Shown: piece after piece, positions 22,301 through 47,504 of the stretch
Numbering within the stretch: the stretch's first letter is position 1
Layout: each line of letters starts with the position of its first letter
Assembly (NCBI GenBank): GCA_947085505.1
Contig: CAMTWI010000002.1
Coordinates: 8,681-72,680, forward strand
Reading direction: 5' to 3'
DNA: 64,000 nucleotides
DNA from: an uncultured bacterium
GTDB lineage: Bacteria; Patescibacteriota; Minisyncoccia; Phycocordibacterales; Phycocordibacteraceae
Notes under the pieces: model-generated
Told to the model about the DNA's origin: nothing
Database searches by the model: none
What the model saw: only the letters and a program-made list of their open reading frames with translations
Position numbers and translations under genes: made by a program

Positions 22301-25300
22301 AACGTTAATACCATCTCCATCCCCTGTATTGACTACTACGGTAAGCTTGCTGCCGGGATTTGTCTCACCGATACCGACCCTACCACCATAAGGCTGCAGA
22401 GTGATGTTGCCGCTATTAGAGGAGCCGGACTCGTGTGTCTGGAGTGTAAATGTTCGATTCGCTTGACTGGCAGCACCTATACCGCGAATCTTGAGACCGA
22501 ACCAACCTGAACCATCATTGGAGCTAATCTCGAGTCCGGCACGCTCTGTCGTGTCTGTTTTTGCAAACGGATAAACAACATGGAGAGGGGCAGTCGGACT
22601 TACCGTTCCAATACCTACATTACTGCTGTTGGTTATAAAGAATGCAGATGAACCTCCACCCGGGTTAAAAGCAAACGTAGATGCTTGTATGGCAAGAGGA
22701 TCCCAGGCAACTCCCGGACGAATAGAACTTATGTATGCACTTCCTGCCGTTCCCTTAGAGAACGCCAGGCCGTCTGAAGTGGTGGGACCAAAGACTGTGT
22801 GTCGTGCATCAAATGCAGATATCGAATTAGGCGCAGTCTCTGCTGTAGTTAATACATGGAGTTTGCCCAGAGGTGCGGTGCTGCCAATACCGACGTTGCC
22901 ATCAACATATAATCTTCCGAAAACTCGAGCATAGCCGTTGGTGAATCCACCAGCTGCTATCTCCATAAGGTCACCAGCTCCCGCAGAGTTGAATATCCAT
23001 TTCTCTATACTTCCCCCTCCAGATGTACGGAAGAAGAATTTAGTTGTGCCTTCGGTATTTGAGTTATATGTACTGTTACCTCCTGCATAGAGATTGAACG
23101 TAGTTGCTGCATTGTCGCTAAAACTAAGACCGCGACGTTTTGTTGCAGACATATCAACAGAATCGATATACGCATCGCCCGTACCACTTAAGCGGATGTT
23201 TCCATTAGCTACTTCGAGCTTAGCGCCTGGATTTACTGTGCCGATACCAACGAAGCCTCCTGTAGTGATACGCATTCTTTCGGTCGGTGTCCCTGATACA
23301 TCAACAATAAAGGCAAGTGCGTTGCTGTTATTTGCAGCTGACCCCATTCCAACCTGCCAACTATTACCAGATGCATTGAAGACGATACCTGCAGTGGCAG
23401 ACGAACCAGCATCTTCATTCCTCATCCATAATCGCAGAGGGCCATTTGTGTTTTGGAGAATGGTAAGTTTTCCAAAACCAGTGTCGCTGGTACCAATACC
23501 GACGTTGCCCGTACTACTAATTGTCAGGTGAGTCGTTCCCCCAGCACCGCCAAGAGCAAGATTTGAACCCTCGATACGCAGTCCTGCGAGAGATCCTGCA
23601 TCATTAAGACCGGCAAGTGTCGTCTGGCCGCCGTTGTTGTACATAGCAACATGCTGATTTGTGGCCAGCTTCACACCAAACTTAATCACAGTACTTATGG
23701 CAGAACCGGCACCGACAGTGACATTGCCGTTGTCTTGGATAGTGAAGAGCGGACTGTTCGAGGAATTAGCTGTCTGAAAATTGATGCCAGTACCTGTTCC
23801 TCCTCCAGTCACGGAGAGCTTACCCACGGGTGTTGTTGTACCAATACCGACGTTCCCTGCAGCGCTGAGCGTAAAACCAACCTGTCCCTGATCGTAAATT
23901 AGCTGCGTAATACCACCAGCGGTATCAGAACCCGCACCAATTCGCATGGTCTTCGTAGACTGTTGATACTGAATTAATCCACCTATGTTATCAGCGGGGC
24001 TCCCAAATTGGATCTTGCTTAGACTTCCGTTAGGAACCAGTATCGATATACCGTTGGAACCATTACCCTCGAATACTCCGAGATTGGCATTACCGTGTGC
24101 CGTAACAGTTCCTGCCGTCCCTCCTAGAACATGGAATTTTCCTTCGGGCTCTGTAGTACCGATACCGACGTTACCATTTGAAAGCAAACTAAGCGGCGTA
24201 CCGAAAGTAGAAGCACCCGTGTCTAACAGACGGAAATCCAGCCGTGTGCTTGCCTGAATGCCAGTTGTTGTCTTTGCAATCCGCAGTTCTGCAACGCTCG
24301 GGTATACGTCCCCGGTTACACCAGGACGGACAAGAGTTAGGACATTTTCTGCGGCATTTGGTGCTGTTCCAGAGTTTGTCGCATTAACGGTTGGCGAAAC
24401 GAACACCGCTGCTCCGGCACGTGTATAGGCGTCGTATGCAGGAACCACACCACTTACCACTTCTAACTTAAGCCCTGGCGAGAGACTGCCAATACCGAGA
24501 TTTCCATTGGTATCCAATGTCATCTTCGGTGTATTGGTAATGGTGCCTTGAATGAACTGTAGGTTTGATCCCCCTGAGTAATCACCAATCATCCATTTTG
24601 GTGTACTTGCTGCACGCAGCTGCAGACCATAAAAACCTGTTGTTGCAGAATCAGCAACAAAGTACGCTCCTGCGACAGATGCACTTACCTTAATCACGGC
24701 GTCACTCCCAGTTTTACCGACATGAAGCAACTCATCGGGTCCTGTTGTACCAATACCGACCCTGCCCGAAGAAGTTAAGAATATTGCATCTGCGTTATTA
24801 GTATTGCCGATACTTAAGCTGCCACTGCCAGTTGTGATACCGAAATAACTGTTACCGTTTGATGCAGCCTCGAAGCGAATTTTATTAGTGTCGTTGTAGT
24901 TAGCATAGATACCTGCATTACTTGCCGTACGCTTCACCTCAAGCGCACTACCTGGGTCTGTTGTACCAATACCAACATTGCCCCCACTAAGAATCGTTAT
25001 CCTCTGATTTGCGTAAGTACCAACATAGTAGCTAGAGAGTGTATTGTTGTCGCCAAATGCCTGGAATCCACCTAATGCCGCTCCTGCATTACCTTCGAAA
25101 TTATAGCCGTACGCCCAGCCTCCCGTATCTCCAGCAAGTGCAACGCCATAAGGAGAATTATTACCGTACACCCTGAAACCTCGAGCGGCAGCACTTCCAA
25201 CCTGCAGAAGAGCGCCCGGGCTTGTGGTGCCAATACCAACATTACCCTCACCCGTAACAGCAACCCGAACTGTGCCTGGACTCGTACCACTTGAGATCAT

Positions 25301-28300
25301 CAAAGGAAAATCGGTTGAGGCGACTCCCTCACTATGTAGGCGCAATCCATATGCGCCACCTGCTGCTGCGCGGTTGCTAATAACTGCTGCCCAGTCATTT
25401 TGGGTGGTGCTCCAATAAAATGCGTCTGTCGCGGCACCCGAGGGTGCAGTACCGGAAACGTTTGTGAGGAGATAGCTTGGACTAGTGGTGCCAATACCAA
25501 CGTTCCCTCCCATGAACGTGAACGCTCCACCTGTGTTGAGACTGAGATTGCTCCCAACTTTTGCAACGTAATACGCATTATCAACTCCATAGTTAAAGCT
25601 CATCAAATTGCCCGAGGCGACATACACACCCCCACTTTCGACCGCCAAGTGGCCACCGGTAACGGTAAGCTTGTGCGCTGGTGTGGCAGTTCCAATACCA
25701 ACATTACCAGTTTGGGTAATGCGCATCTTTTCCGTTAGGCCTCCACCATAGGTATAGAACGCCAAGTGATAGTTATCCGGACCTACGATTAGATTACTAA
25801 TCTTTCCCGTAAGGAGACTGTTTGTGCTGTGGGCATTAAATCCAAGACTTACTGAGGTACCTGTTGTGTTAGCTGAGTTACTTAGATAGAGAGGTATGGA
25901 TTCTGCACCATCATTGAGCGTGGAAGCATGGAGTCTTCCTGCTGGATTTGTCGTGCCAACACCGACATTGCCAGCAAAATACGCACTACCATCTCTACCG
26001 ATGGCAGCAACGTCCCCGGCGAATGCGGTATTGAATATGAGTGGATCGCTCAACGAACCGAGACCTGCAGCCATATAAAGTCGCGTGTAGTCTGTATCGT
26101 TTGAACGAGTGATTTGCAGACCTTGTGCTGAAGTGTCGCTACCCTGAAGGATTTCTAGTTTTGCATCGGGAGTAGTGTCACCAAGACCGACGTTTCCTGC
26201 AGCATTTACGAATATTCCCTCGCTACCTCCATCTCCAGAGAGCCAGTTTCCATTCAACTGAATGTTCTGTGTAGCGATGTGGTTTCCGAGGTTATCACCT
26301 GTTGCAGATGCAAGACCACAATCTCCTGAAGATACACGAAGTACACCATTTAGATCTGCGTACACGCAGCGATTACCTGAACCAGCAAGATTTGAGGAAA
26401 GAATATTTCCGGTTACGGAGAGCTTCTCTGCAGCCGATGTGCCACCGATACTGACGTTACCTGCAGGTGTGATTACCAGACGCTGTGTCCCAGCAAGCGT
26501 GATTTCAAAACCGCCATTGTCTGCACCCGTGATGAAGGGGTTCAGGGCGACAGCATTCCCTCCAGAGAAGGTCGTCGTGAGTCGGAGGGCGTCTGCACCA
26601 CCGATCGTTCTCTCGATAATAAGATTAGGCGTAACACTACCAGCATCAGCGACGGTTAATTTTCCGGTTGGTGCGCTGTTCCCAATACCGACGTTACCCG
26701 AAGACAATATGTGGATTGCGCTAGTTCCAGCCCCGCCGCCAATAGTTGCTCCGACATTAATCTCAAATCCCCCCGTAGTAATGAACTGAGTTCTTGGCAC
26801 TGCCGCTCCCTGCGTTGCGACAAGAAGAAATCCTTCTGTTGCACTATTTTCCATCTGAATTGCTCCTGTTGTAGAGCCAGAATATGGCCTCCAGTCTGTT
26901 GGGCTGGCAACAGAGCCGAGATTAATGTGTCTACCAATAGACGTTCCAACGCCACCAACAGTATTGACGATCATTCCACCACCGCTCACGTGAAGCCTGG
27001 ACCCAGGAGCGGTAGTACCAATACCCACGTTACCGTTCGGATAACTGATATGAAAACGTACCTTTGCAGCGTCCCCAGCCTCAAGAATCTGGAAATGATC
27101 TCCTGCGGCTCGAAGTTCGTAGTTATAGTTTGTTGAAGAACGTAGTATTAAACTTCGATCGGCACCATTCGTAGTTTCTATATTCCCAGCAACAGTAAGT
27201 CTTGAAGGTGCGTTTGCAGTACCAATACCCACGTTACCGTCTTGGAGCACCGTTAGTGCAGCAATCGGATTGGCTGCGTTGTAAACATCGATGTTAAAGG
27301 AGTTGTCGGTACCGGCACGCATTCCCCACCACCCGTTCACATCAAAGAACGCAGTTGTGGCTCCCAGTGCGGCTGCAGAGCGAGTCGCCGAACCACCTTG
27401 AATAGGTCCAAGGACCGAGAGCACTGGATTGGTATTAACTCCGAGACCCACATAGATTGGATTCGTGTTACCAATACCGACGTTGCCGTTATCACGGAAT
27501 GTCACGTACTCCGTTGTTCCAGAGCCCCCACCCCAGAAATGAAGTCCGGTATTAGCAGATACGATGTAATTCTCATCTGCTATTGTCCCGCCCGTACCAT
27601 CTCCCACGAACATACGGAACCGCTGTGCCGCAGGGCTCGCTGTCCTATCGAGCGTAAGGCTAGTATTGTTTCCGCCTATAATATGCATCCTTGCTAATGG
27701 GCTTGTGGTATTTATACCGACATAACCAGTTGTATCGATTGTGAAAGGATACGTATCACCCGTGTCATTTAAAGCGATGCTTCGTACGCGAAATTGATTA
27801 CTACTGTTGAAGTCAACATAGTTTGGACCTGTCGTTCTCTGGAGGCGAAGGCGCGCATCGTTTCCAGTAATCAATACGCCACCAAATACATCTAATTTAT
27901 CGGCTGGCGTTGTTGTACCAATACCGACGTTGCCTGAAGAATTTATCGTAAGTACCGCTGCTGCAAGTGAGTCCTTATAGATTTGGAAATTGTCCGTATT
28001 GTTGTTTGTACTTACATCACTACCGATACGCCAGCCAGTACCTCCGTTATCTGTAAAGAGGAGTTGGGCATTCTTCGTTGTCCCTGATGTGTTCTGTATC
28101 TGGGCTTGTGCTACGCCGTTTGTTGCAACATGCAGTTTCGTGGTTGGTCCTGTTGTACCAATACCGACGTTGCCTGTAGCACGCTGGAAGTACATCACAT
28201 CGCTGTCGACACTCGACAATCGCCGTTTCAAAAACAGGTCGCCTGTGGTCAACTCGTCCTGCATGAGTTTCCAACCGAAGGTGCCATTGCCACCCGTTAC

Positions 28301-31300
28301 CCCTGTTTGCAGAATTATATTGTTAGCTACGCCTGCAAGCTCCGCATATATCGCTGGAGTGGACGCGCTTCCAACAACCTGTAACTTTCCAAGAGAAGGT
28401 GTTGCTGTACCAATACCAACGTTGCCCGCAGAGGTGATGGTGAGAGAGGTAGCAGCGTTACCAAGACCAGCAGCTCCGTAATCGTTGGTGAGGTATAGGT
28501 TTGAATCATTTGGCTTGCTTCCAAGTATCACTGACGCGACACCGGCTTGATGTAACAGGAGTGAAGCCGTGGTACCTGTTGGTTCTGCACCATAGAACGT
28601 CGCCCCACCTACGTTGAAGCCCTGGAAGGTGCCCGCACGGATACGGCCATTTACATTGAGTCTTTCGTCGCCCACAAAGACCGTGGTGCCAATGCCGATA
28701 TTGCCTGCGCTGTTTATATACAATGCGGACGTAAAGGTGCGAGAACCTGAACCAGCAGATGCCTGCACATAGTTCAGGGAACCGCTTGCTCCAAGAATAA
28801 GCGCGGAACCTGTTTGTGCTGTGTTATCAAGTGTTCCCGCTGTAGCTGAGGTAAGAAGTGCGTTATTGGAAAGCACTGGGGTGTCACCTGAATACTGAAC
28901 GCCAAACCGGTGCTTCATTCCTGACCAACCGGACGGCTCAAGAATGTAATTAAGTGTTGAGCCTGTTGCTCCTGCAACATGCAGCAAACTTGAAGGAGAG
29001 GTGGTGCCAATACCGACGTTTCCTGAACCAAGAATCGTCACTTGAGCAACGTTGTTTGTGCCAAACGTTAAGGGGCCATTCTGAACGTTAACAATATGGG
29101 CACCATTCACCGCATGGTATCCACTAGGGGTTATTCCAGAACCGTTGAAGCCGACAACAAGACCGTATCCTGTAGTATTCGTTATGTTGAGCTGGTTCAT
29201 AACGGTGCTTCCTGAACCTATATTTGAATTGAACTCCGCGGTGTTCCCACGAATTCCGCCGTTACCTACAATATTCAAAGGAGATGAGGGGGATGTTGTA
29301 CCAATACCGACATTACCTAATGAATTTATAATCATCCGATCTCCACCGCTTGTAGAGAACAAGTACTCGCCACCGGCCGAACCTATGGCGAACTTAAATC
29401 TGTTACCGTTTACGGCATCGGAATTCGTTTCAGACGTGATATCAAGGTTGTAGTTATTATTGCCAACGAGCCTCTGAATCACACTTGATAGAGTGCTGTT
29501 AACCACTTCTAACTTCGCTCCTGGATTCGTAGTACCAATACCGATATTTCCTGATGTATCGATGGTCATGCGCGTAGCATTGTTGGTCTCAAACGCGAGG
29601 TTGTTACTGTCGTTAGTACCAAGCACCGCAGTTGCACCAAACGAGTTCCCTCCTTGGCGGAAGAAGTCAGTAGCGAGATCGCTGTAGTTAACTGTGAGGG
29701 CGCCACCAATATTTGAGAGGCCGGTACCAAGAAGACTTGTGAAGAGGTTGCTGTTGAGGGTGAAGTTCGTGGTTGTGAAATTTGTTGTTGTCGCGCTCGT
29801 GAAGACACTATTCGCAGAGAAGACCGGCATATTGAACTCGAAGCGGTCCAGGGTGCTGTTCCAGGTCAAGAGCGCGTGTGGCGAAGCACTTCCACGATTG
29901 AAGATAAGGGTACTGTCTTCAGTGTCTGCGGTTGCGTTGTCTGCGTTTAGCGTGAACGAGCTTGAGACTGTGCCTGCAATTGAGGTTGAAGCAGCTGAGA
30001 GATTGTTAACCGTGAGCTCGTCTATATACCCGCGGCGCCAATAGCTTCCTGTTGATCCAAAGTCGTAGGTGTTGTTCGTGGTTGGAATCAGGCTTGAGCT
30101 AATCGTGCTGTTAACCGTAAGGAGATCAGCGGCACTGGTTCCCAACGTTGTGTTTCTGCCAACCGCGATGTTCCCTGAGAACGCAGAGGTAGCGGTTGTT
30201 GAAGTGGCGAGAATGTACGGGCCTGCGACGTACTGACCGCCCTCGATAAAGGTTGCTTGAATACCACCTCCAAACGTGGACGTAGCGCCGTTACTTGCGA
30301 TGGTGGTTGGCTGCGAGCTTCCAATCACGATTGTTGAAGGGAGCGACAGCGTTACACCCCCTATGCCGTTATCCGTTACCGTGAGCTGATTCAACGTTCC
30401 GGTAACCCATGAGGAGAGACTAGTTGAGGTTGCAACCCCATTTGCACCTACTGACAGGAGTCGGGACGGGGTGACATAGGTGAGAGCGAATGCGTTCGTT
30501 GAGGTTGCGTTGGTAAGCGTTGAGTTCGTTGCCGTGAGGTTTGTGATAATTGCGGTCGTTATGTTCGCAAGCGGTGAGGTAAGCGCATCAATGACGGCGG
30601 TCGTGAACCGTGCACCCGTGGCAAAGAGATTTGTTGATGTTGCGTTTGTAGCTGTAAGGTTGGTTGCAAAGAGATTCGTTGATGTAGCATTTGTCGATGT
30701 CGCGTTCGTAAATACCGCGTCAGTAGCCGTAAGGTTCGCAATCACTGCCGTTGTGATGTTCGCAAGTGTCGCCGTGAGGTTTGTGAAGAATCCGTCAAAG
30801 ATGGTGGCTAGTGTTGCGTAGAACGTTGTTGACGTTGCGTTCGTAATTGTCGCGTTCGTCCCAAGAAGATTCTCAACAGTGCCGTTCGTCGTGAACAGGT
30901 TAGTCGAAGTTGCATTCGTACTGGTTGCGTTTGTGAACACCGCGTCAGTTGCCGTGAGGTTTGTGATAACCGCATTCGTAATGGTTGCAAGTGTCGCCGT
31001 GAGGTTTGTGAAGAATCCGTCGACAACACTCGCAACTGCCGCATAGAAGTTTGTCGTGGTTGCGTTTGTAATTGTCGCGTTCTCGCCGAGAAGGTTGGTG
31101 AAGGATGCGTTCGTAGCAAAAAGATTTGTTGACGTTGCGTTCGTGCTCGTTGAGCTTGTTGAGACAATGCCATTCGCTACGATATCTCCGTTAACAGTTA
31201 GCGAACCTGTGATAGTCGTAGATGCGACATTGAGAGAAGAGCCGGTAATCGATCCCCCAGTGAAAGTTGAGTTGGTAATCGCACCGTCCTCAAATGTTGA

Positions 31301-33181
31301 ATCACTAATTCTGGTGTCGACGATACTACTGTTCATTATCTCGCCAGAGAACGTGTAGTTATTTGAAACATCTTCAATTCGGTTATAAAGCGTGCGACGA
31401 AGGAAATCGAAGCGCTCGTCGACATAGGACTGTGGTACCCCACCGTATGTCACCGTTGGGTATTCGTTACGCACGATGGTCACCGGTCCGGTATAGACTG
31501 TCGTGTTTCCTTTCACTGCCTCTTCCGTACCAGTAGTGCCACTCGGTACAGGGAATGAACTTGGATCGTTTGGAATAACGGCAAGTCCAACTTCTTCTGA
31601 TGCACCGAAGAAGCCAGCGAGCGGACCGAAGATTCCATGGAAGGCGCTTCCCACTGCGTGCGCAAAAACCGCTGTTACGTTTCGTAGGAACTCGGGAACG
31701 AATCGATCAATATCAAAAGAAGCCAGTGGCGACGCTGAGAGCATGCTGGTATCAACCGACTCGATACGAAGTGCAATACCTCCTACAACCCCGAGAGTCT
31801 TGTCAGTAGCGACTAAAGGCACTGATTCGATAGCAAGCACTGCATGTGCTACCCCGTTCTCAATACTTCTAACAGCCAACCTTGCTCGCTCTACTGACTG
31901 GACTACGGCTCGGTCTTGGGCTTCTAGAAGACCCCAAACAGTTCTGTCAGCTTCTTTTCCAAAGGCAAATGAGCCCTCAGAGATCATCAATCCTGCAGAT
32001 ACTGACTCTTCTACGAAGGCTAGTACGCTCTCTTCATAGACAACCGGTGCAGACTGTACGCCCATAGCCACCGTGCCGCCAATATAGTTCCCAATCCCAT
32101 ATACCGTACCGGTAATGGCACCCGGTATCACATCAATATTCTCGACATATGCATAGACCGCACGCTCATACGAAGACAGTACTGCAGAAGACGCTGTCAC
32201 AAATACGTTTCCAATAGCCAATGGTGTCCGTACTGCGATATCTCTCGTATTCAAGCTAACTGACACCAAGCCGTTCGCTGCCGCTTCAACTCCACGCAGG
32301 TGAAGAGCAAGGACTGTTTGAATATCGTTGAGTGCGTTCACACCAAGTCGGTTGTATGCGAGCATCGCCTCACGTGCAGTTGTTGCAAGTATTTCTTCGG
32401 GGTGAGTTGCAGCATGAGTGATTCCTGCAACGATTTGTGTAAACGTGAGAGGCTCAGGATACGTTTCAAAAATTTCTCTTGCGTGTACGTTCGCGAGCTT
32501 AGTCATCTCTACTGGCTCATGCGAATTCTTCATAGCTTCACCCAAGGTCAGGGGTAGCGTTGCCACTCGTGTGTCTGTCGCACGAACAAGTGCTATCTCT
32601 ATCTTTTTTATTTCATCTTCAGCAATTCTAGAAAATTCCGCAGTCTTCTCTACTGCGAGTGAATTCGAGGTATAGACAGCAGCAATAGCGAGTGCACGAA
32701 CTTCAAATGCTGAAGCGAGGATCATCTCACCTGCGCGTGCCACAACTCCACTGCCTGCGAGTGTTACACTCGCGCCAAGTACGAATGCAGTAAGTCCTGC
32801 GGCAAATGCGCGACCACTCATAACCGGCATAGAACGTGGTATGCGTACGGAAGAAAATGCTCCGAGCATCGACTGTGTTGCTACACGCATCCTATTTTCA
32901 AGATCATTCGCTACTCCAGAAACCTGGGTAACAGGACTATTTGCTTTACGATACTCAAGCTCTCTCTCGCGAGCAAGATTCTCAGCAAGTTCAATTTTTC
33001 TATCTAATTGAGTCTCCATGAAAACCTCAAGTGAGGCTCTCTCAATCAGCCACGTGCGGCCAACTTGTGAGCTTGCAATTTTCTTCTCACGACAAAGTCG
33101 CGACAAGTAGTCAGCGTTGTATCCGGAAAGTGCAGAGGCCTCTTTCGTTGAGATTAAATTTTTCTGGAGGAGAGAGTTCAA
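19394..33181 (-). CDS. giant membrane-anchored fibre protein (4,595 aa): HTH, TM, helical region, pentapeptide-like N/T array, about 33 GNVGIG modules, S74 chaperone domain, Ig-like domain
   Basis: One uninterrupted ORF of 13,788 nt. The only start-like codon after the upstream in-frame TAA that keeps the HTH domain is TTG at 33179-33181. The next Met is residue 55. Confidence 0.85.
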   Translation of the reverse strand: MNSLLQKNLISTKEASALSGYNADYLSRLCREKKIASSQVGRTWLIERASLEVFMETQLDRKIELAENLARERELEYRKANSPVTQVSGVANDLENRMRVATQSMLGAFSSVRIPRSMPVMSGRAFAAGLTAFVLGASVTLAGSGVVARAGEMILASAFEVRALAIAAVYTSNSLAVEKTAEFSRIAEDEIKKIEIALVRATDTRVATLPLTLGEAMKNSHEPVEMTKLANVHAREIFETYPEPLTFTQIVAGITHAATHPEEILATTAREAMLAYNRLGVNALNDIQTVLALHLRGVEAAANGLVSVSLNTRDIAVRTPLAIGNVFVTASSAVLSSYERAVYAYVENIDVIPGAITGTVYGIGNYIGGTVAMGVQSAPVVYEESVLAFVEESVSAGLMISEGSFAFGKEADRTVWGLLEAQDRAVVQSVERARLAVRSIENGVAHAVLAIESVPLVATDKTLGVVGGIALRIESVDTSMLSASPLASFDIDRFVPEFLRNVTAVFAHAVGSAFHGIFGPLAGFFGASEEVGLAVIPNDPSSFPVPSGTTGTEEAVKGNTTVYTGPVTIVRNEYPTVTYGGVPQSYVDERFDFLRRTLYNRIEDVSNNYTFSGEIMNSSIVDTRISDSTFEDGAITNSTFTGGSITGSSLNVASTTITGSLTVNGDIVANGIVSTSSTSTNATSTNLFATNASFTNLLGENATITNATTTNFYAAVASVVDGFFTNLTATLATITNAVITNLTATDAVFTNATSTNATSTNLFTTNGTVENLLGTNATITNATSTTFYATLATIFDGFFTNLTATLANITTAVIANLTATDAVFTNATSTNATSTNLFATNLTATNATSTNLFATGARFTTAVIDALTSPLANITTAIITNLTATNSTLTNATSTNAFALTYVTPSRLLSVGANGVATSTSLSSWVTGTLNQLTVTDNGIGGVTLSLPSTIVIGSSQPTTIASNGATSTFGGGIQATFIEGGQYVAGPYILATSTTATSAFSGNIAVGRNTTLGTSAADLLTVNSTISSSLIPTTNNTYDFGSTGSYWRRGYIDELTVNNLSAASTSIAGTVSSSFTLNADNATADTEDSTLIFNRGSASPHALLTWNSTLDRFEFNMPVFSANSVFTSATTTNFTTTNFTLNSNLFTSLLGTGLSNIGGALTVNYSDLATDFFRQGGNSFGATAVLGTNDSNNLAFETNNATRMTIDTSGNIGIGTTNPGAKLEVVNSTLSSVIQRLVGNNNYNLDITSETNSDAVNGNRFKFAIGSAGGEYLFSTSGGDRMIINSLGNVGIGTTSPSSPLNIVGNGGIRGNTAEFNSNIGSGSTVMNQLNITNTTGYGLVVGFNGSGITPSGYHAVNGAHIVNVQNGPLTFGTNNVAQVTILGSGNVGIGTTSPSSLLHVAGATGSTLNYILEPSGWSGMKHRFGVQYSGDTPVLSNNALLTSATAGTLDNTAQTGSALILGASGSLNYVQASAGSGSRTFTSALYINSAGNIGIGTTVFVGDERLNVNGRIRAGTFQGFNVGGATFYGAEPTGTTASLLLHQAGVASVILGSKPNDSNLYLTNDYGAAGLGNAATSLTITSAGNVGIGTATPSLGKLQVVGSASTPAIYAELAGVANNIILQTGVTGGNGTFGWKLMQDELTTGDLFLKRRLSSVDSDVMYFQRATGNVGIGTTGPTTKLHVATNGVAQAQIQNTSGTTKNAQLLFTDNGGTGWRIGSDVSTNNNTDNFQIYKDSLAAAVLTINSSGNVGIGTTTPADKLDVFGGVLITGNDARLRLQRTTGPNYVDFNSSNQFRVRSIALNDTGDTYPFTIDTTGYVGINTTSPLARMHIIGGNNTSLTLDRTASPAAQRFRMFVGDGTGGTIADENYIVSANTGLHFWGGGSGTTEYVTFRDNGNVGIGNTNPIYVGLGVNTNPVLSVLGPIQGGSATRSAAALGATTAFFDVNGWWGMRAGTDNSFNIDVYNAANPIAALTVLQDGNVGIGTANAPSRLTVAGNIETTNGADRSLILRSSTNYNYELRAAGDHFQILEAGDAAKVRFHISYPNGNVGIGTTAPGSRLHVSGGGMIVNTVGGVGTSIGRHINLGSVASPTDWRPYSGSTTGAIQMENSATEGFLLVATQGAAVPRTQFITTGGFEINVGATIGGGAGTSAIHILSSGNVGIGNSAPTGKLTVADAGSVTPNLIIERTIGGADALRLTTTFSGGNAVALNPFITGADNGGFEITLAGTQRLVITPAGNVSIGGTSAAEKLSVTGNILSSNLAGSGNRCVYADLNGVLRVSSGDCGLASATGDNLGNHIATQNIQLNGNWLSGDGGSEGIFVNAAGNVGLGDTTPDAKLEILQGSDTSAQGLQITRSNDTDYTRLYMAAGLGSLSDPLIFNTAFAGDVAAIGRDGSAYFAGNVGVGTTNPAGRLHASTLNDGAESIPLYLSNSANTTGTSVSLGFNAHSTNSLLTGKISNLIVGPDNYHLAFYTYGGGLTEKMRITQTGNVGIGTATPAHKLTVTGGHLAVESGGVYVASGNLMSFNYGVDNAYYVAKVGSNLSLNTGGAFTFMGGNVGIGTTSPSYLLTNVSGTAPSGAATDAFYWSTTQNDWAAVISNRAAAGGAYGLRLHSEGVASTDFPLMISSGTSPGTVRVAVTGEGNVGIGTTSPGALLQVGSAAARGFRVYGNNSPYGVALAGDTGGWAYGYNFEGNAGAALGGFQAFGDNNTLSSYYVGTYANQRITILSGGNVGIGTTDPGSALEVKRTASNAGIYANYNDTNKIRFEAASNGNSYFGITTGSGSLSIGNTNNADAIFLTSSGRVGIGTTGPDELLHVGKTGSDAVIKVSASVAGAYFVADSATTGFYGLQLRAASTPKWMIGDYSGGSNLQFIQGTITNTPKMTLDTNGNLGIGSLSPGLKLEVVSGVVPAYDAYTRAGAAVFVSPTVNATNSGTAPNAAENVLTLVRPGVTGDVYPSVAELRIAKTTTGIQASTRLDFRLLDTGASTFGTPLSLLSNGNVGIGTTEPEGKFHVLGGTAGTVTAHGNANLGVFEGNGSNGISILVPNGSLSKIQFGSPADNIGGLIQYQQSTKTMRIGAGSDTAGGITQLIYDQGQVGFTLSAAGNVGIGTTTPVGKLSVTGGGTGTGINFQTANSSNSPLFTIQDNGNVTVGAGSAISTVIKFGVKLATNQHVAMYNNGGQTTLAGLNDAGSLAGLRIEGSNLALGGAGGTTHLTISSTGNVGIGTSDTGFGKLTILQNTNGPLRLWMRNEDAGSSATAGIVFNASGNSWQVGMGSAANNSNALAFIVDVSGTPTERMRITTGGFVGIGTVNPGAKLEVANGNIRLSGTGDAYIDSVDMSATKRRGLSFSDNAATTFNLYAGGNSTYNSNTEGTTKFFFRTSGGGSIEKWIFNSAGAGDLMEIAAGGFTNGYARVFGRLYVDGNVGIGSTAPLGKLHVLTTAETAPNSISAFDARHTVFGPTTSDGLAFSKGTAGSAYISSIRPGVAWDPLAIQASTFAFNPGGGSSAFFITNSSNVGIGTVSPTAPLHVVYPFAKTDTTERAGLEISSNDGSGWFGLKIRGIGAASQANRTFTLQTHESGSSNSGNITLQPYGGRVGIGETNPGSKLTVVVNTGDGDGINVTNASNSSYVSLFVMGSTGHSISNWANSTVLEAVPASTGGLVLSSYTGKITFQTSNRSNRMTILENGNVGIGTTNPLAQLAVGGTQAGNAGFEIVPGSGIVAQAYNRTGGAYASLNFDGSTIGFRPGGSTAMFIAGTGNVGIGMTDPAYQLEVGKTTGGVIAISTAGNAGSNASPLPATLNFLGYGDVVKGAISVQDRTGNFLGGWMKLQTADSSDVLQDRIFIDRDGNVGIGTTNPTHRLEVVNVTGAVGTNTIVGSFTKATTNGGGSASIRLTSDGYSTDIQTNSGGTGPFTYGTFVDTNIVNNFTDASGPYGNINFVTNGAVKMTITGGNASGNVGIGTASPGARLHVLGSDTLPVYVATSDANASYVRFFTGSTVSRGGFGYNTAGAVFLNAALSTANMVILNGGNVGIGTADASRRLTVVNDGSTNLVSSFQFGASGAITTVGADATQGRIQAYTNAYGSSATLLLNPDGGSVALPGTVSCTGLQTNGSGVISCASDENLKDIQGVFTTGLSGLRGINPQTYTWKEGTDYFDGGIQYSGFIAQNVGANIPEAMNEGVNGIKQISTTAILAASVNAIKELDIRTLALAPAAQNQAAHSLAVSTDASIAGKLTVTGIGTFSNSLTAASVFTQGSVTAVAFLTNSAVTLPSEVLTNGSADLFKMASYAITSMQALSERTDLLAVRIDEVETRLALLEASSATEQVSGAVGLTLATLKSMLQTLGIYLENGIAQFETLVFRQLAVAKDTNGDSSAGSQTILAGNTVVEVQNPYVLPTSKIFVTFTGPIQGAWYLSNKEAGKFRVTLAQGQSADVSFDYFILQTEGQLASPGAAGKTQTQSEPTPSPSTEPLPPVFPGEGTSTTTPVVSSGDTTPPSITLNGPAAREIDQGATWIDLGATASDETDGDLTASIQVQGTVDTSTPGTYTVTYSVSDAAGNQAHVSRIVSVKAVAAPAPEPTSTPEPAPAP
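19454..19687 (-). other. DUF5011-type bacterial Ig-like domain near the C-terminus of giant protein 2 (aa 4499-4576)
   Basis: DTTPPSITLNGPAAREIDQGATWIDLGATASDETDGDLTASIQVQGTVDTSTPGTYTVTYSVSDAAGNQAHVSRIVSV matches the D.t.P.i.l.G...G..y.d.G..A.D..DGdlt...v.g.vd...pGtYtvtY.v.D.aGN pattern. Confidence 0.7.
20534..20806 (-). other. peptidase S74-like intramolecular chaperone domain of giant protein 2 (aa 4126-4216)
   Basis: C-A-SDENLKDIQG...GLRGINPQTYTWKE...YSGFIAQNVGANIPEAMNEG...ISTTAILAASVNAIKELD. The Ser4127 codon is at 20801-20803. Confidence 0.75.
20852..29668 (-). repeat. array of about 33 degenerate GNVGIGTTxP-initiated modules (giant protein 2, aa 1172-4110)
   Basis: The 20-mer gtaccaataccgacgttgcc recurs exactly at 21279-21298 and 23490-23509, and on the 27911-27940 and 28151-28180 lines. 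Many one- or two-mismatch copies also occur. Confidence 0.85.
30482..31156 (-). repeat. Asn/Thr-rich 5-residue-periodic array (pentapeptide-repeat-like) with two copies of a roughly 75-aa unit (giant protein 2, aa 676-900)
   Basis: STNAT STNLF ATNAS FTNLL GENAT ITNAT TTNFY... has Asn every fifth residue over long stretches. About 22 N-x-S/T sequons by hand count. Confidence 0.7.
32738..32812 (-). other. predicted TM anchor of giant protein 2 (aa 124-148)
   Basis: AFAAGLTAFVLGASVTLAGSGVVA is preceded by RIPRSMPVMSGR. Confidence 0.6.
33008..33181 (-). other. N-terminal excisionase/MerR-type HTH domain of giant protein 2 (aa 1-58)
   Basis: LISTKEASALSGYNADYLSRLCREKKIASSQVGRTWLIERASLEVFM aligns with the N-termini of the proteins starting at 18861 and 34703. 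Confidence 0.65.
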
Positions 33182-33260
33182 GGTGCAGTAGGTCGGATAT
33201 CCGAATTAACTACATTTTAGCTTGTTATTTAGCATTTACTGCATACTCATTTGTGGATAG

Positions 33261-33303
33261 TCTTGCACACACGTTTAGCAATTTATCGATCGCAATCGCA
33301 AGA
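33261..33303. promoter_or_regulatory. inverted repeat TCTTGC-N31-GCAAGA upstream of giant gene 2
   Basis: Arms at 33261-33266 and 33298-33303. It shares the 9-mer tcttgcaca with the repeat at 18998. Confidence 0.25.
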
Positions 33304-33665
33304 ATTTATTTAAAACAAAAAAATCAAAAAAACTTAGATAGAATTTTGATGTGACCGCAAATATTTCATGTCCAAGGTGTCTTAGTTAGCCCGCAAGGAA
33401 CCACACCTCAACAAAAAGCTTAAACCTTACTGAATCTATACATTAATTAAGAACATAGGGTCGGCAATCCGTAATAGTTAATACTTACCTATTAAGTCGG
33501 ATCGAAAGTGCGACAGTCTACGGCCTTAACGTATCCTATATATAGGTATAGTTGAGAATAATTGCAGATAAAGAGGTATTTTCACCAGTTAAATGCATTT
33601 ACAACCTAAATAAAGTAAATACTGCTTTATTCCTCTCTGTAGTAGTAATGCTCCTTAATATAGTC

Positions 33666-33691
33666 ATAAAGCCCTCATTTGAGGGCTTTAT
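33666..33691 (-). terminator. perfect 11-bp hairpin downstream of the 301-aa HTH-TM gene
   Basis: ataaagccctc-attt-gagggctttat lies about 105 nt after the stop at 33798. Only a weak T-tract follows on the minus strand. Confidence 0.45.
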
Positions 33692-33797
33692 CTTAAACAT
33701 TGTGTCTAAAGTAAGTAGTTTTGTTTGATGTCAGCGAGTCAGACTATCTCAGATCTTATAATTGTATCTTGTATATACGAGACGAGATATTGTTATT

Positions 33798-34703
33798 TTA
33801 TAAGCTACTTTTATAGGTACTCTTTCCTCCGAGAAAGTCTATTATGGACTTTTGAACTCCGTAGTCCAGACTCGTTCCAGAAAGAAGTCGTTCTGCATTC
33901 CCTGTTCCTATCAGAGCTACGAGCATTGCAGCAACGGATACGACGATGAGAATTGCACGAACAACGACACTGCTCGATGACTTCGTCTCAGCTACTACTG
34001 CTTTAGTTAATGGCTTTTGTGCTCGTTGGATAACCGGCTGCTCTGGGTAGACTTCCTCATATTCCTTGCGAGGAGTATTCGCTGTTGCATACGATCGATG
34101 TAGCTCAACTCTTTCTTCTTTTGGGATTGTCTCTTCTGCGGCTTTTGCTAGTTCTGGCTCAGGATTCCGAATTCGTGAGATAGCGACTACTTCTTCTTGG
34201 TCAGGGCTGTGGGTCACCGATACCTCCTGAGCCTCTAAAACAGCCTCAGGAGCGGTTTCGGGCACGATTACAGGTAGATACTCATCCTTAAAATCATCTG
34301 TGCCGTCAGGTAACGTTGCCTGTGGAGTCTTTTTTTCATCAAACCACTCTCTCCACGCAGACTGCATGTCAGCGATTGCCGGAGATCCAACGGTTTCTGC
34401 TGGCTTCCTGCTGAATTCAGGCACTAAAACAGGCGTTTCAGCCACATATTGAGGTTTCTGCCATGTAGAGACCCTATCAGTAGCTGGTTCTGCCTGTTCA
34501 ACTACTGGTTCGACATCATCTTCTTTTCCAAATCTATGCTCTCTGATAGCTGAGTCTAGTACGTACCAATTACGACCAACTAGACGAGCCTCCACCCTCC
34601 CTTCTCGACAAAGCTGACCGACATAGTCTTTCGCATAACCAGTAATTTTTGCCGCCTGCTTTGACGAGATGTAAGTCTTGTCACCAATAGTTATCTCATC
34701 CAT
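33798..34703 (-). CDS. HTH-domain protein with acidic linker and C-terminal TM anchor (short paralog of the giant-protein N-terminal module)
   Basis: 301 aa. The N-terminus YISSKQAAKITGYAKDYVGQLCREGRVEARLVGRNWYVLDSAI aligns with both giant proteins. A TM helix VVVRAILIVVSVAAMLVALIGTG spans aa 246-268 (33900-33968). Confidence 0.75.
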   Translation of the reverse strand: MDEITIGDKTYISSKQAAKITGYAKDYVGQLCREGRVEARLVGRNWYVLDSAIREHRFGKEDDVEPVVEQAEPATDRVSTWQKPQYVAETPVLVPEFSRKPAETVGSPAIADMQSAWREWFDEKKTPQATLPDGTDDFKDEYLPVIVPETAPEAVLEAQEVSVTHSPDQEEVVAISRIRNPEPELAKAAEETIPKEERVELHRSYATANTPRKEYEEVYPEQPVIQRAQKPLTKAVVAETKSSSSVVVRAILIVVSVAAMLVALIGTGNAERLLSGTSLDYGVQKSIIDFLGGKSTYKSSL

Positions 34704-34709
34704 GCATGG

Positions 34710-34715
34710 ATTATA
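34710..34715 (-). promoter_or_regulatory. consensus -10 TATAAT, 6 nt upstream of the ATG at 34703 (leaderless-type promoter)
   Basis: Minus strand reads TATAAT ccatgc ATG. A possible -35 CTGAAA lies 17 nt upstream. The site follows the gatB terminator. Confidence 0.5.
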
Positions 34716-34777
34716 ATACTTTCTTGCCTCGTTTCAGATAGGTTATGAACACCTGTATGTCGAGCTCGATTTTCAGA

Positions 34778-34820
34778 TAAAAGAAACTCCTCAGGAGAGA
34801 TCCTGAGGAGTTTCTTTTTT
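34778..34820. terminator. rho-independent terminator after gatB
   Basis: A perfect 15-bp stem agaaactcctcagga-gaga-tcctgaggagtttct is flanked by A- and T-runs. Confidence 0.8.
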
Positions 34821-36296: not shown

Positions 36297-37277
36297 CTAG
36301 GCGTCCTCCCTGGCAAGCTCCTTCGTAAGGGTATCGGAAAATGCCTTGAGGAGATTCTCGTCTGCAATGGAGAGCGCGAGCACCCTCTTCCCTGCTGCCT
36401 TCTCAAGGTCAATTCGTAGCTTTTCAGCCTCTTCTGGCGACAAAAGGTCCACTTTCGAGAGCACCACGAGTTCTTCTTTCTCGTCGAGTCCGTTACCAAA
36501 TGCCGTTAGCTCGTCCCGTATGGCCCTATAGGCTGCAACAACGTCTTCTTGCTCAACCGAGACGAGATGTACAAGAAACTTCGTACGTTCTATATGCTTG
36601 AGGAACCGAGAACCAAGACCTCGTCCCTCCGAGGCACCTTCGATAAGTCCTGGAATATCAGCCAGGATGCGTCCATAAAAGTCCCCGAGATGGGGGTCGA
36701 GTGTCGTGAAGGGGTATGCCCCGACTCGTGAGCGGGCGCGGGTCAGCTCATTCAAGAGAGAGGACTTTCCGGCATTCGGAAAGCCGATAAGGCCCGCGTC
36801 CGCGATGAGCTTTAGGGTGATATGGATATCCCCAGTCTGGCCGTTTCGCCCCGGCATGGAGTTCATAGGATTCTGGTTTGTGGGGCCTTTGTAGTGGGCA
36901 TTCCCATAGCCTCCAGGGCCTCCCTTGAGCACAACGATGCGCTCCCCTTCCTTAAGAAGATCGAACACGTCACCTGTTGAAGAAACCGCTACGGTGCTAC
37001 CAACCGGAAGCTTAAGCACCACTGGCTCCCCGTCCTTTCCATGACGGTCGTTCCCTTCCCCTGGTCCTCCGTTCTCTGCCTTAATGCGCTTCGTGTAGCG
37101 ATACGCTGCAAGCGCTCCGAGATCACGGACCGTCTCGACAATAATGTCGCCACCACGTCCCCCATCGCCTCCCGCAGGACCACCCTTATCCTTTCCTTTC
37201 ATGTGTAGCCATCGCACAACACCCGGACCTCCGTGTCCGGCTACTGCGTGTACGTGCATCTCATCGACGAAAGCCAT
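36297..37277 (-). CDS. obg: GTPase Obg
   Basis: MAFVDEMHVHAVAGHGGPG, the Gly-rich Obg fold, and the G-domain motifs GFPNAGKSSLL and DIPGLIEGA. Start trimmed from the GTG at 37286 to the ATG at 37277. Confidence 0.9.
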   Translation of the reverse strand: MAFVDEMHVHAVAGHGGPGVVRWLHMKGKDKGGPAGGDGGRGGDIIVETVRDLGALAAYRYTKRIKAENGGPGEGNDRHGKDGEPVVLKLPVGSTVAVSSTGDVFDLLKEGERIVVLKGGPGGYGNAHYKGPTNQNPMNSMPGRNGQTGDIHITLKLIADAGLIGFPNAGKSSLLNELTRARSRVGAYPFTTLDPHLGDFYGRILADIPGLIEGASEGRGLGSRFLKHIERTKFLVHLVSVEQEDVVAAYRAIRDELTAFGNGLDEKEELVVLSKVDLLSPEEAEKLRIDLEKAAGKRVLALSIADENLLKAFSDTLTKELAREDA

Positions 37278-37300
37278 TTTATGCACGATACCACAGAACG

Positions 37301-45093: not shown

Positions 45094-46371
45094 ATGAAAG
45101 TGCTCAGATTCCGCCTCATGTCCCTTCTGCGCTGGAGCGAGCAGTATACCAAGACGGATATGGTGTACCTGGCGTCAGGCGGCTCATGGCTTGGTATTGC
45201 TCAGATAGCAGCTTCTCTGGTCGGATTCCTCACAACAGTGGCCTTCGCTAACCTTCTCACCCAAGACACGCTGGGCGAGTACCGCTTCCTCCTTTCAGCG
45301 GTACTCATACTTTCTGTCTTCGCGCTTCCAGGAATGCGTTCGGCGATTCTTGAGTCGACTCCAAAGGGGTTTCGAGGAAATCTTCATGCCGCGTACATAG
45401 CGATGATGCGCTGGGCAACGATTGGTTCAGCGATTGCGCTCGCTACGGCGATGTACTACCTGTGGCAAGGAAATGCGATTCTCTCAATCGGATTCGCCAT
45501 CATTGCACTCCTACTTCCCTTGCTTGATGCGAGTGCGGTGCATCTTGAATATTTAAAGGCGCTTAGAGAGTTTAAGAAGGTTGCGATTTATACTCTCGTG
45601 ACGCGAAGTGTCCTTCTTGTTGCGTCTCTCACTGTCGCATTTATCTACCCTGAGTACGCGTGGGCAGTGCTTGCGGCATTTCTGGTTGGCAGCATTCTTC
45701 CAAATCTTCTCTTCCATAAAAAGACTGTACGTCAGTTCATGCACGCTGGTGATCCGTCTGACCCACAGCTCATGCCCTACGCGCGCCATCTCTCGATTAT
45801 GGTTGCTTTTAGTCTAATTGCTCTTCAACTCGACAAGGTGTTTGTGTGGCACTTCCTTGGCGCTGAAGAACTTGCCCTGTTCTTCATTGCCTATGCGATT
45901 CCTCAAGAAGCTTCGCGCTTCCTTCAAATTATACCGACGCTTGCCTTCCCTAAGTTTGCAGTCAGTACGCCCCAGACCATACGTCGGACACTGATGCCAA
46001 AAATGCTTGTACAGTTTGTAATTACAGCTGTACTTGTAACGGTATATATTCTGCTAGCCCCATTCATATTCAGCATACTGTTCCCTCAGTACATGGCAGC
46101 AGTGCCCTACTCGCAGGTACTCATGCTCTGCGCACTAGGATCGGTATTCCTTCCTATCAGTACGTACTTTACTGCACGTAAAGCAGTTCGAACATTGTAT
46201 TTCCTTTCGGTATTCCTCCCCTTCGTGCGCGTTAGTACTGCGCTCGTGCTCATAGCACTCTTTGGGCTGTGGGGTGCCGTGTATGCGCTTCTTGTAGAAG
46301 CATTTGTTTCCACACTCACTTTTATTCTATTGTTTCTGCGTGAGCCAAAACATTCGAACACGGCAGGTTAA
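45094..46371 (+). CDS. polysaccharide/oligosaccharide flippase (MOP/Wzx-like) membrane protein
   Basis: About 12 TM segments and its glycan-cluster context. Start trimmed to the ATG at 45094 (MKVLRFRL...). Confidence 0.5.
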   Translation: MKVLRFRLMSLLRWSEQYTKTDMVYLASGGSWLGIAQIAASLVGFLTTVAFANLLTQDTLGEYRFLLSAVLILSVFALPGMRSAILESTPKGFRGNLHAAYIAMMRWATIGSAIALATAMYYLWQGNAILSIGFAIIALLLPLLDASAVHLEYLKALREFKKVAIYTLVTRSVLLVASLTVAFIYPEYAWAVLAAFLVGSILPNLLFHKKTVRQFMHAGDPSDPQLMPYARHLSIMVAFSLIALQLDKVFVWHFLGAEELALFFIAYAIPQEASRFLQIIPTLAFPKFAVSTPQTIRRTLMPKMLVQFVITAVLVTVYILLAPFIFSILFPQYMAAVPYSQVLMLCALGSVFLPISTYFTARKAVRTLYFLSVFLPFVRVSTALVLIALFGLWGAVYALLVEAFVSTLTFILLFLREPKHSNTAG

Positions 46372-47504
46372 TCTTCTAGCTGATCTAGAATTGATACGAA
46401 TGAGCTTGCAATTACCCCCACTGAGAAATAGGTCTCGATGCGCTTGCGTGCGGCGAGACCGTACTCTTTTCGAAGGGCGGGGTCCGCGAGCTTCTCGATA
46501 CATCTAGCTAAGTGCTCCGCGTTTCCAGTCTTAAAAATAAGACCTGTTTCTCCTTCCTCCACGTACACATTGCCGCCCACAGTATCACTGGTTATCGTTG
46601 GGAGGCCGCATGCCATTGCCTCTGGAACCACCATGCCAATAGCCTCGCCATGTGTTGGAAGCACCAGTATGTCGTGATCCGCATAGACTTTAGGCATTTC
46701 GCGAGTTGGTACGCACGGAAGAAATATCACCTTATCTTCAACCCCGAGAGACCGTGCCTCTGCGGCAATAGCATCCTTAAGATGGCCTCCGCTTCCTATG
46801 AGTGAGAGCCTGAGATTGATCGATTCGTCAGCAAGCAGACGAAGCGCCCTGAGCATGTCCGTATGCCGCTTGTATGGCACGAACCGAGCATTCATTAGTA
46901 TGCGCACACCATCGTTTAGCGCACTCTTCGATTCAAGGCGTGGTTGAAATAGGACACTATCAACTGGTGCTGGAAGAACCGTTATCCGACACCCTGGCAG
47001 AAGATTCTTAAGGAACGCTTGTTCCTCGGGAGTATAGACAAGGATCGCATCGATATATGCTGCACTCCCTTTCAAAAATCCTATGAAGAACCGTAGCGCC
47101 AGACGAGAAAGAGGATTCTCTGGCCAGCGTCGTGTCTCACTATAGAGTACGAATTTTGTTTCTGGGTGTCTCTTCTTATGTGCCAGGGCTTGAAGCGTGT
47201 ACCAGTGATATACATCGAAAACAACAACGACCGCCGGCATCTCCTTTTCAAGAAAGCGCCGAAGTCCTGATACATACAGTGGAGCTTGTGTTTCGCGTCG
47301 AAGAAACTGCATCAGGCCATGTAGGCCGAAGGTGTGTAATGGCGTGCGCCATATGCGCATGAAGCGCTCTTCTGGAAGCTGAGGCGTGGCCCTTGCAGCA
47401 ATACCTATTAGCCCGTATGTCTCCGAGAGTTGCCCATACAAGGAAACGAGATGTGTCTTGTGGACTACGAGACACACGCTTTTCGTACTTCCTCGCTGTA
47501 CCAT
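46368..47504 (-). CDS. glycosyltransferase family 4 (GT-B)
   Basis: The C-terminal half has LPTHGEAIGMVVPEAMACGLPTITSDTVGG, the E-x7-E GT4 signature. Confidence 0.8.
   Translation of the reverse strand: MVQRGSTKSVCLVVHKTHLVSLYGQLSETYGLIGIAARATPQLPEERFMRIWRTPLHTFGLHGLMQFLRRETQAPLYVSGLRRFLEKEMPAVVVVFDVYHWYTLQALAHKKRHPETKFVLYSETRRWPENPLSRLALRFFIGFLKGSAAYIDAILVYTPEEQAFLKNLLPGCRITVLPAPVDSVLFQPRLESKSALNDGVRILMNARFVPYKRHTDMLRALRLLADESINLRLSLIGSGGHLKDAIAAEARSLGVEDKVIFLPCVPTREMPKVYADHDILVLPTHGEAIGMVVPEAMACGLPTITSDTVGGNVYVEEGETGLIFKTGNAEHLARCIEKLADPALRKEYGLAARKRIETYFSVGVIASSFVSILDQLED

Follow-up and report, generated by a model that had tools for sequence, protein, structure and literature searches.

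What does a short protein with a helix-turn-helix (HTH) head and a membrane anchor do beside the genes of two giant proteins, and do the three belong together? The question is raised by a 64,000-nucleotide stretch of DNA, here called the window, from an uncultured bacterium of the Patescibacteriota (Minisyncoccia; Phycocordibacterales; Phycocordibacteraceae; GenBank assembly GCA_947085505.1, contig CAMTWI010000002.1, positions 8,681 to 72,680 of the forward strand). The short gene occupies positions 33798 to 34703 of the window on the minus strand, and the genes of giant 1 and giant 2 lie downstream of it. The Paceibacteria/Parcubacteria, in which relatives of the short gene are found, are abundant, almost entirely uncultivated and ultra-small, and are thought to be attached to hosts. 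In answer, the short protein is described below as a member of a conserved family, its gene as surrounded by copies of a selected nucleotide motif and adjoined by a large gene with the same type of HTH, and its function is tentatively read as that of a membrane-tethered regulator.

A membrane-anchored HTH protein and its family

A sequence-only reading had described a 301-aa open reading frame (ORF) composed of an HTH, a linker, a single transmembrane (TM) helix (aa 246-268, 33900-33968) and a 33-aa tail, and this architecture was found as claimed. A protein identical to the 301-aa short protein exists in public data (P0001). The parts of the gene are as follows.

33798..34703, minus strand: coding sequence (CDS) of the short gene, 301 aa, HTH-linker-TM, with an ATG start and the stop codon at 33798-33800
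34527..34703, minus strand: winged HTH, aa 1-59, Xis/BldC/MerR-like, HTH_17 (Pfam, AlphaFold2, Foldseek)
33969..34526, minus strand: acidic, Pro/Glu-rich linker, aa 60-245 (186 aa; composition and AlphaFold2)
34332..34382, minus strand: conserved amphipathic helix, aa 108-124 (PAIADMQSAWxEWF), with a predicted local distance difference test score (pLDDT) of ~82 and a DSSP helix at 108-124
33900..33968, minus strand: single TM helix, aa 246-268, the sole hydrophobic helix, ending in an invariant G266-T267-G268
33801..33899, minus strand: 33-aa C-terminal tail, conserved in family alignments (..DFG.QK.I.DFLGG.STY.SSL)

The HTH was assigned by sequence and by fold. Pfam HTH_17 matched aa 11-55 (E 7e-4; 20.2 bits, under the 27-bit cut-off), TIGR01764 scored 13.4 bits, and seven short-family members carry PF12728 in precomputed Pfam annotation. 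An AlphaFold2 (AF2) model built on 113 homologues placed aa 1-59 at a pLDDT of ~90 with the topology beta-beta-alpha-alpha-beta-beta-alpha. The nearest folds in the PDB by Foldseek were Pukovnik Xis, BldC, RdfS, RacA and TraN (template-modelling score TMt 0.55-0.77, root-mean-square deviation (rmsd) 1.6-2.3 Å), and CbpM was also among the matches. For Xis (4j2n), BldC (6ama) and RdfS (8dgl) the Foldseek probability was 0.9-1.0, yet E-values were just 0.05-0.5 because the domain is small. Sequence searches of the PDB gave no useful match, whether the query was the family profile or the HTH by itself. By its predicted fold, the head belongs to the Xis/BldC/MerR-like winged helices.

The linker had been called acidic, Pro/Glu-rich and probably disordered. 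Its composition agrees with this (isoelectric point (pI) 4.5; 10.8% Pro, 15.1% Glu, 20.4% Asp+Glu), as does a pLDDT mostly below 60, but the linker is not featureless. Conserved motifs run through it (W81-P84-Y86, M113-Q-x-A-W-x-x-W-F121, LPDGS-DF-EYLP and VELHRSY, together with R177), and M113, Q114, A116, W117, W120 and F121 are invariant within the helix at 108-124, which could dimerise. Outside the HTH, AF2 modelled this helix, a TM helix at 245-266 and two short helices in the tail, and left the remainder at low confidence. Lys/Arg charge is biased to the N-terminal side of the TM helix. The protein is predicted to be bitopic, with the N-terminus inside, the C-terminus outside and the anchor near the C-terminus; the tail would be extracytoplasmic given the charge distribution and the fact that HTH domains are cytoplasmic.

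The short protein was compared with 5.8 billion proteins and matched 1335 clusters (at 90% identity). Among the best 120 of the 1335, all are 261-330 aa long, most align over their full length down to ~40% identity, and wherever a name is given it is 'hypothetical protein', the source being Patescibacteria, Paceibacterota or Parcubacteria. When 1.84 billion representatives were searched with a profile, 755 matched at E <= 1e-30 and 5073 at E <= 1e-3, and the best 150 of these were all 144-375 aa long. Members of the short family are 260-370 aa long and come from Paceibacteria/Parcubacteria. The gene, previously unnamed, is thus real, widespread and unannotated, and occurs class-wide in the ultra-small Patescibacteria. 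Neither the family nor giant HTH-anchored proteins of Patescibacteria were described in the literature searched, and the statement is limited to that literature.

Conservation is distributed unevenly along the protein. Mean pairwise identity within the family is 88% in the HTH, 34% in the linker, 79% in the motif at aa 108-121, 47% in the TM helix and 51% in the tail; among themselves, the HTH domains of the giants reach 56%. Near-invariant residues span the whole HTH in the alignments and recur in the linker motifs, in G266-T267-G268 and in the tail. The window's protein has the traits of the family, namely the near-invariant HTH, W-P-Y, MQxAWxxWF, a TM helix ending in GTG and a place between gatB and an HTH-TM gene. 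Taken together, the alignments indicate that the short protein represents an old orthologous family under strong constraint and not a recently truncated paralog of a giant.

The nucleotide motif and the leaderless promoter

An 8-11-nt motif, ATCTCGTCTCG/CGAGACGAGAT, was found at four conserved places, which are the promoter spacer of the short gene, its codons 12-14, the region past its stop codon and the interior of obg. The copies in the window and the signals that frame them are listed here.

34701..34737, minus strand: leaderless promoter, with a -35-like CTGAAA (34737-34732), the spacer motif CGAGGCAAGAAA (34731-34720), TATAAT (34715-34710), 6 nt and the ATG (34703)
34663..34670, minus strand: motif copy ATCTCGTC in the short CDS, codons 12-14 (+34), an 8-nt match from a separate search
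33766..33788, minus strand: post-stop palindromic element ATCTCGTCTCG-N5-ACAAGAT, 10 nt past the stop, made of the reverse complement of the spacer motif and a partner arm
36558..36569, plus strand: motif copy CGAGACGAGATG in obg (36297..37286, minus strand), read on the minus strand as codons CAT CTC GTC TCG (H-L-V-S)
33666..33691, minus strand: terminator-type hairpin of the short gene, a perfect 12-bp stem followed by TTTAT, 107 nt past the stop
34779..34818, minus strand: gatB terminator, a perfect 18-bp stem that isolates the short-gene promoter

In the promoter spacer, the motif takes the form CGAG[A/G/C]C[G/A]AGA(T/A) at -27 to -29 from the ATG; it is exact in 49 of 81 loci and present in 73 under a looser pattern. 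Past the stop, the reverse complement TCTCGTCTCG lies 15-28 nt downstream in 59 of 81 loci (33778-33788 in the window) and is followed, 5-9 nt on, by a partner arm (G)AC(G/A)AGAT. Both copies in coding sequence are held at the level of the codon. Codon 13 of the short gene (Ser) is TCG in 73 of 81 loci, while TCG makes up 32% of the Ser codons in obg genes, and the homologous Ser of the giants is written with all four TCN codons without a preference for TCG. In obg, CAT-CTY-GTC-TCG is kept in 71 of 72 loci (3.7% expected by codon usage) and adjacent codons vary synonymously. It was also observed that the next obg codons after the motif, GCT GAA CAA GAA, yield the partner arm (ACAAGA). Elsewhere in 1.25 Mb of related loci, the motif occurs near chance level, and the exact 12-nt pattern has three matches in the window, in obg, in the promoter spacer and past the stop. 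The comparison shows nucleotide-level selection on the motif across the aligned loci, synonymous sites of both coding copies included.

The claim of a leaderless promoter (TATAAT-N6-ATG) and of a separate hairpin was confirmed, the hairpin being the 12-bp stem at 33666..33691. TAnnnT, a -10-like hexamer, is found 5-7 nt ahead of the ATG in 80 of the 81 loci, a Shine-Dalgarno-like sequence precedes the short gene in none of the 81, and the spacer between the -35-like and -10 elements is 16 nt in the window and 16-17 bp across loci. TATAMT-N6-ATG matches at seven positions in the window where 0.67 would be expected, and four of these are starts of other annotated genes (2676, 47504, 48377 and 58212, all minus strand), so leaderless expression is a habit of the genome and nothing peculiar to this gene. 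Most genes in the window were also seen to be without an obvious Shine-Dalgarno sequence. In the spacer of the leaderless promoter of the gene at 46368..47504 (47470-47530, minus strand) lies ACGAGGCGTGA, which differs by one mismatch from ACGAGGCAAGA of the short gene and stands at another spacing from the -10 element; this copy may be chance or a second target.

The hairpin at 33666..33691 is likely, from its sequence, to be the terminator of the short gene. It was not called by a strict terminator scan since its T-run is short, and many related loci have a GC-rich hairpin with a T-run at the same relative place. The post-stop element was considered as a terminator and rejected, as it is without a T-run and the canonical terminator lies 30-100 nt further on. 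When the element was drawn by hand as a helix, 82% of cells paired, with Y/R covariation at one position, and RNAalifold found no consensus hairpin on its sense strand. The promoter copy falls past the gatB terminator and ahead of the inferred start of transcription, so it cannot belong to the leaderless mRNA, which makes a function at the DNA level the economical reading of the motif.

One DNA-level function to be weighed is that of a tether between locus and membrane, comparable to RacA with its ram sites or to parS. The short protein would pin the secA-obg-gatB-short-giants region and so favour co-transcriptional, co-translational export of fibres of 3.6-4.6 thousand aa, or would anchor the chromosome, in either case outside classical transcription control. 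RacA, a MerR-like HTH protein that anchors DNA via few sites, is among the fold matches; some motif copies lie inside genes and are kept at synonymous positions, as can be the case for known centromere-like sites. The long flexible linker and the membrane anchor would suit such a function, and secA is next door. Yet the four known sites all fall within ~2.8 kb, one of them is placed exactly in a promoter spacer, which points to transcription control, and transertion is not known to require a dedicated tether. We regard this reading as rather improbable.

Linkage to the giant-protein genes

In order to follow the locus across relatives, genomes were scanned at one per species. A relative of the short gene was found in 230 stretches, and 80 loci were fetched (L001-L080). 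The order is secA, sometimes an amino-acid kinase gene, obg, gatB, the short gene and a large HTH-TM ORF; in the window, the neighbours of the short gene are secA, obg, gatB and GAPDH. The sequence-only reading had made conserved linkage of short and giant forms a point on which its proposal would stand or fall, and linkage was found: an HTH-TM large ORF lies immediately downstream in 74 of 74 loci whose sequence reaches that far, even where the short protein is just 30% identical. These 74 comprise 73 recognised by profile and L043, whose HTH gene is frameshifted. The partner ORF encodes from ~450 to more than 3000 aa, starts ~0.3-0.7 kb past the short gene, has the same HTH subtype and has its TM helix at about aa 95-190. 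Four loci (L033, L054, L056 and L076) encode a large protein with two tandem HTH domains. In L043 (3952-5032), the frameshift falls right past the recognition helix, and the gene is either a pseudogene or an assembly error.

The two giant genes of the window, and the region upstream of the first, are as follows.

19394..33181, minus strand: giant 1, 4595 aa, with HTH_17, a TM helix at about aa 125, fibre repeats, Peptidase_S74 and an immunoglobulin (Ig)-like domain
7891..18861, minus strand: giant 2, 3656 aa, with HTH_17, a TM helix and Peptidase_S74
33192..33260, minus strand: conserved region upstream of giant 1, with CTATCCACA (33260-33252), a -35/-10-like region and TAGTTAATTCGGATATCCGAC (33212-33192)

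Both giants begin with an HTH_17 domain (30.7 bits against Pfam for the N-terminus of giant 1), followed by a TM helix at about aa 100-130, and both have the Peptidase_S74 intramolecular-chaperone domain near the C-terminus; in giant 1 these are joined by an Ig-like domain and by a segment with weak likeness to T4 gp36. From these domains, the giants are probably membrane-anchored, trimeric fibres. Each was observed to join a cytoplasmic N-terminal HTH and a TM anchor to features of phage tail fibres, GNVGIGTT-type repeats included, and giant 1 continues for ~400 residues beyond Peptidase_S74, the Ig-like domain among them. When the first 160 aa of giant 1 were used as a query, a word-index search found two fragments only. 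At 32 nt past the stop of giant 1 (~19340-19362, minus strand), CCATCTCGGATAGCCGAGTTTTT forms a short hairpin with a T-run and begins with an ATCTCGG core; the same core was seen past the short-gene stop in L023, L026, L038, L048, L068 and L070.

The short protein had been said to share the N-terminal module of the giants. Similarity is significant under proper alignment statistics, both by BLASTP (43% identity over 40 aa, E 5e-11, for giant 1; 35% over 37 aa, E 1e-6, for giant 2) and by profile-profile alignment with hhalign of 80 short-family sequences against 73 giant N-termini (probability 98.9%, E 3.9e-17). The HTH domains are thus homologous, but the alignment covers 48 columns (aa 8-55), and neither method detected similarity between the short protein and the giants beyond the HTH. 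The further proposal that the short protein is a minimal version of the giants' anchor module has to be given up: with 48 residues shared, and with a TM helix at aa 246 against one ~50-90 aa past the HTH in the giants, it belongs to an independent family.

These comparisons bear on a second alternative, in which the short protein is a scaffold or assembly partner. Its HTH would be a protein-protein module that docks on the cytoplasmic HTH or juxtamembrane region of the giants, or on a machine such as Sec, and would help to insert, cluster or position the fibres, while the motif would belong to another regulator. Within the window, an HTH profile matches just the short gene and the two giants; the short gene strictly adjoins an HTH-TM gene, with secA near; the linker motifs and the helix at aa 108-124 resemble docking motifs; the TM end and the outer tail are conserved, and the charge of the HTH is modest. 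HTH domains of the CbpM and MamR type do work through protein contacts. However, the short HTH is near-invariant (88%) and that of the giants varies (56%), unlike a co-evolving HTH-HTH interface; the similarity confined to the HTH also speaks against it, and the four motif copies around the short gene are left unexplained. We hold the scaffold to be unlikely, though less so than the tether.

Adjacency can also be read without any functional link to the giants, with the short protein as a housekeeping membrane HTH protein (for example in a RodZ-like division or envelope role) that stays in place by core synteny only. secA, obg, gatB and the short gene are all syntenic, obg and gatB are unrelated to fibres, and at least 230 species genomes contain the family, as would be expected of a core gene. 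Since the whole block is syntenic, adjacency alone is no proof of a functional tie, and the promoter of the giant is without the motif. Against this, the downstream gene is the sole other carrier of the HTH subtype at each locus and is always present despite a hugely variable length and extracellular part, and the domain content of the short protein is not RodZ-like. This explanation also seems doubtful to us.

A prophage remnant, with an excisionase gene beside tail-fibre genes, would account for the HTH_17/excisionase-type matches and for the Peptidase_S74 and T4 gp36-like segments of the giants. It is effectively refuted: 50,697 phage records gave no match, no integrase or other phage genes are nearby, the position within a housekeeping block is fixed across 80 species, all three proteins have TM anchors, and GC content is like that of the surroundings except in the AT-rich spacer. 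An excisionase of a phage or of an integrative and conjugative element was likewise rejected, with secA, obg, gatB and GAPDH as neighbours, a fixed place and no phage match.

The spacer between the short gene and giant 1 (33182-33797) is long for a compact genome, and in related loci it measures ~260-760 bp (median ~590 bp). Upstream of the giant, CCGAAAT, a -10-like TATTAT/TAGAAT and, right against the start codon, TAGTTAATTCGGATATCCGAC are conserved across the clade; the window and its nearest relatives differ in that their start, a TTG, lies 10 nt past TAGTTAATTCGGATATCCGAC. The sequence TTATCC[A/C]CA lies ~71 nt before the giant start in 44 of 73 loci and matches the DnaA-box consensus exactly. 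An origin of replication, considered on account of this TTATCCACA-like box, was rejected, as there is no cluster of boxes, no change of gene strand and no turn in skew. Further conserved blocks were noted in the spacer, among them TTTAACTGGTGAAAA, the palindrome CCTATATATAGG of 12 bp (33535-33547) and a second block, ATCCGAC...TTAACTATTACGGATTGCCGAC, similar to the leader of the giant. No known RNA was detected in this spacer or elsewhere in the window, either with Rfam (E-value as well as gathering thresholds) or with ARAGORN.

Upstream of secA, in a 487-bp spacer, an unlisted 63-aa ORF (41423-41614, minus strand) was observed that consists almost wholly of Lys/Ala/Pro repeats (MAAKKKSAKKAVRKPAKKAAPKRK...). 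It resembles a nucleoid protein of the histone-H1 type and is followed by a hairpin terminator, and an exact TTATCCACA lies ~140 nt upstream of it (41753-41761).

Proposed function and known systems

Three observations in combination, the near-invariant HTH, an equally invariant motif at and around its own promoter and the membrane anchor, lead us to propose a regulatory role for the short protein: tethered to the membrane, it would bind DNA, control its own gene and be linked to the fibre locus. We put this at somewhat short of an even chance, and binding of the motif by the short protein is inferred. A cytoplasmic Xis/BldC/MerR-type HTH head would be carried on a flexible acidic tether of ~185 residues, with 33 conserved residues facing outward. 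The HTH would recognise ATCTCGTCTCG/CGAGACGAGAT in its own promoter spacer, at +34 in its CDS, in the post-stop palindrome and in obg. Occupancy next to the promoter would repress transcription of the short gene itself; repression is the expected sign because RNA polymerase would be obstructed at a site within a 16-17-bp spacer. The other sites, intragenic and distal, may act as auxiliary operators, which are known within coding sequence from lac O2 and gal OI. The end of the TM helix (G-T-G) and the outer tail would couple the regulator to the envelope or to the adjacent HTH-anchored fibre, and their conservation suggests a modulator outside or in the membrane, possibly that fibre.

Motif and short-family HTH are conserved across one and the same range of genomes, and the conservation of the HTH (88%, against 34% in the linker) would fit an invariant ligand. 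Several points weigh on the other side. The motif is not in the proximal promoter of the giant, whose conserved elements differ, so that the sequence gives no support to direct control of the giant gene. The motif could be bound by any other factor, the HTH is mildly basic (pI 8.9, net charge ~+2), and MerR-like folds can also serve protein-protein contacts (compare the CbpM match). The synteny may partly reflect a conserved core-genome block, secA-obg-gatB. The post-stop element can be drawn as an RNA hairpin and may have an RNA role, and its arms depart from complementarity, in 11 of 44 sequences by sense-strand C.A mismatches, which the antisense strand would turn into G.U, and in four by U.G; such exceptions are as expected for a degenerate DNA palindrome. 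The idea of a dedicated regulator gains support from the conserved cis motif around the short gene, but direct control of the giants is not indicated.

A broader and decidedly speculative possibility is that the short protein and the giant fibres form one system. Membrane-anchored HTH heads would keep specific DNA against the inner membrane face, and the surface fibres would themselves be DNA-binding. Either host contact would be relayed to the chromosome, or the locus from secA to the giants would be docked at the translocon for co-transcriptional export, with the short paralog as an organising tether that acts via the cluster of four motif sites. We consider it improbable.

The analysis defines a class-wide gene pair, a tethered HTH protein and an HTH-anchored fibre, together with a precise leaderless promoter and an 8-11-nt motif that is selected even at synonymous sites. 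The resulting protein-DNA pair is testable in vitro without cultivation and may offer a way to study how host attachment is regulated in the Candidate Phyla Radiation (CPR, Patescibacteria).

Among known systems, members of the MerR family have a long C-terminal dimerisation helix, an effector region and an operator in a 19-20-bp spacer, whereas the spacer of the short gene is 16-17 bp and the short protein has no Pfam match to MerR or MerR_1 and no effector domain. Like the short protein, RodZ is bitopic with a cytoplasmic N-terminal HTH; it is a widely conserved housekeeping protein that binds MreB and uses its HTH for protein contacts. The HTH of RodZ is of the XRE type (HTH_25) and is accompanied by a periplasmic DUF4115 domain, while the short protein has only 33 aa past its TM helix, and neither HTH_25/HTH_19 nor DUF4115 was found in it by Pfam at E <= 1. 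RacA of Bacillus subtilis, a MerR-like winged HTH protein, uses few DNA sites (ram) to tether DNA to the cell pole. It offers a functional analogy only, as it is soluble, reaches the membrane via a coiled coil and DivIVA and binds GC-rich 14-bp palindromes spread over hundreds of kb; PDB sequence searches detected no sequence relationship to the short protein.

Xis, BldC and RdfS are of the same fold class as aa 1-59 of the short protein (TMt up to 0.77, rmsd 1.6-2.2 Å), and the short protein has a weak HTH_17 sequence signal. They are soluble proteins of 50-70 aa that act in recombination or development, whereas the short protein has a 186-aa linker, a membrane anchor, no recombinase partner and a place in a housekeeping block. 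BldC and Xis bind direct-repeat sites, which the tandem CGAGA-CGAGA of the motif recalls as a lead only. The topological logic is that of ToxR, CadC and TcpP, which have an N-terminal cytoplasmic DNA-binding domain, one TM helix and an extracytoplasmic C-terminus, an orientation that is predicted for the short protein. This architecture lets envelope signals act directly on transcription. These three have an OmpR-type winged helix (Trans_reg_C) and a folded periplasmic sensor; the short protein, in which Pfam found no Trans_reg_C match, has an HTH_17-type head, a long disordered linker and 33 aa outside. With it, the small set of bitopic membrane-bound HTH proteins gains a new HTH class.

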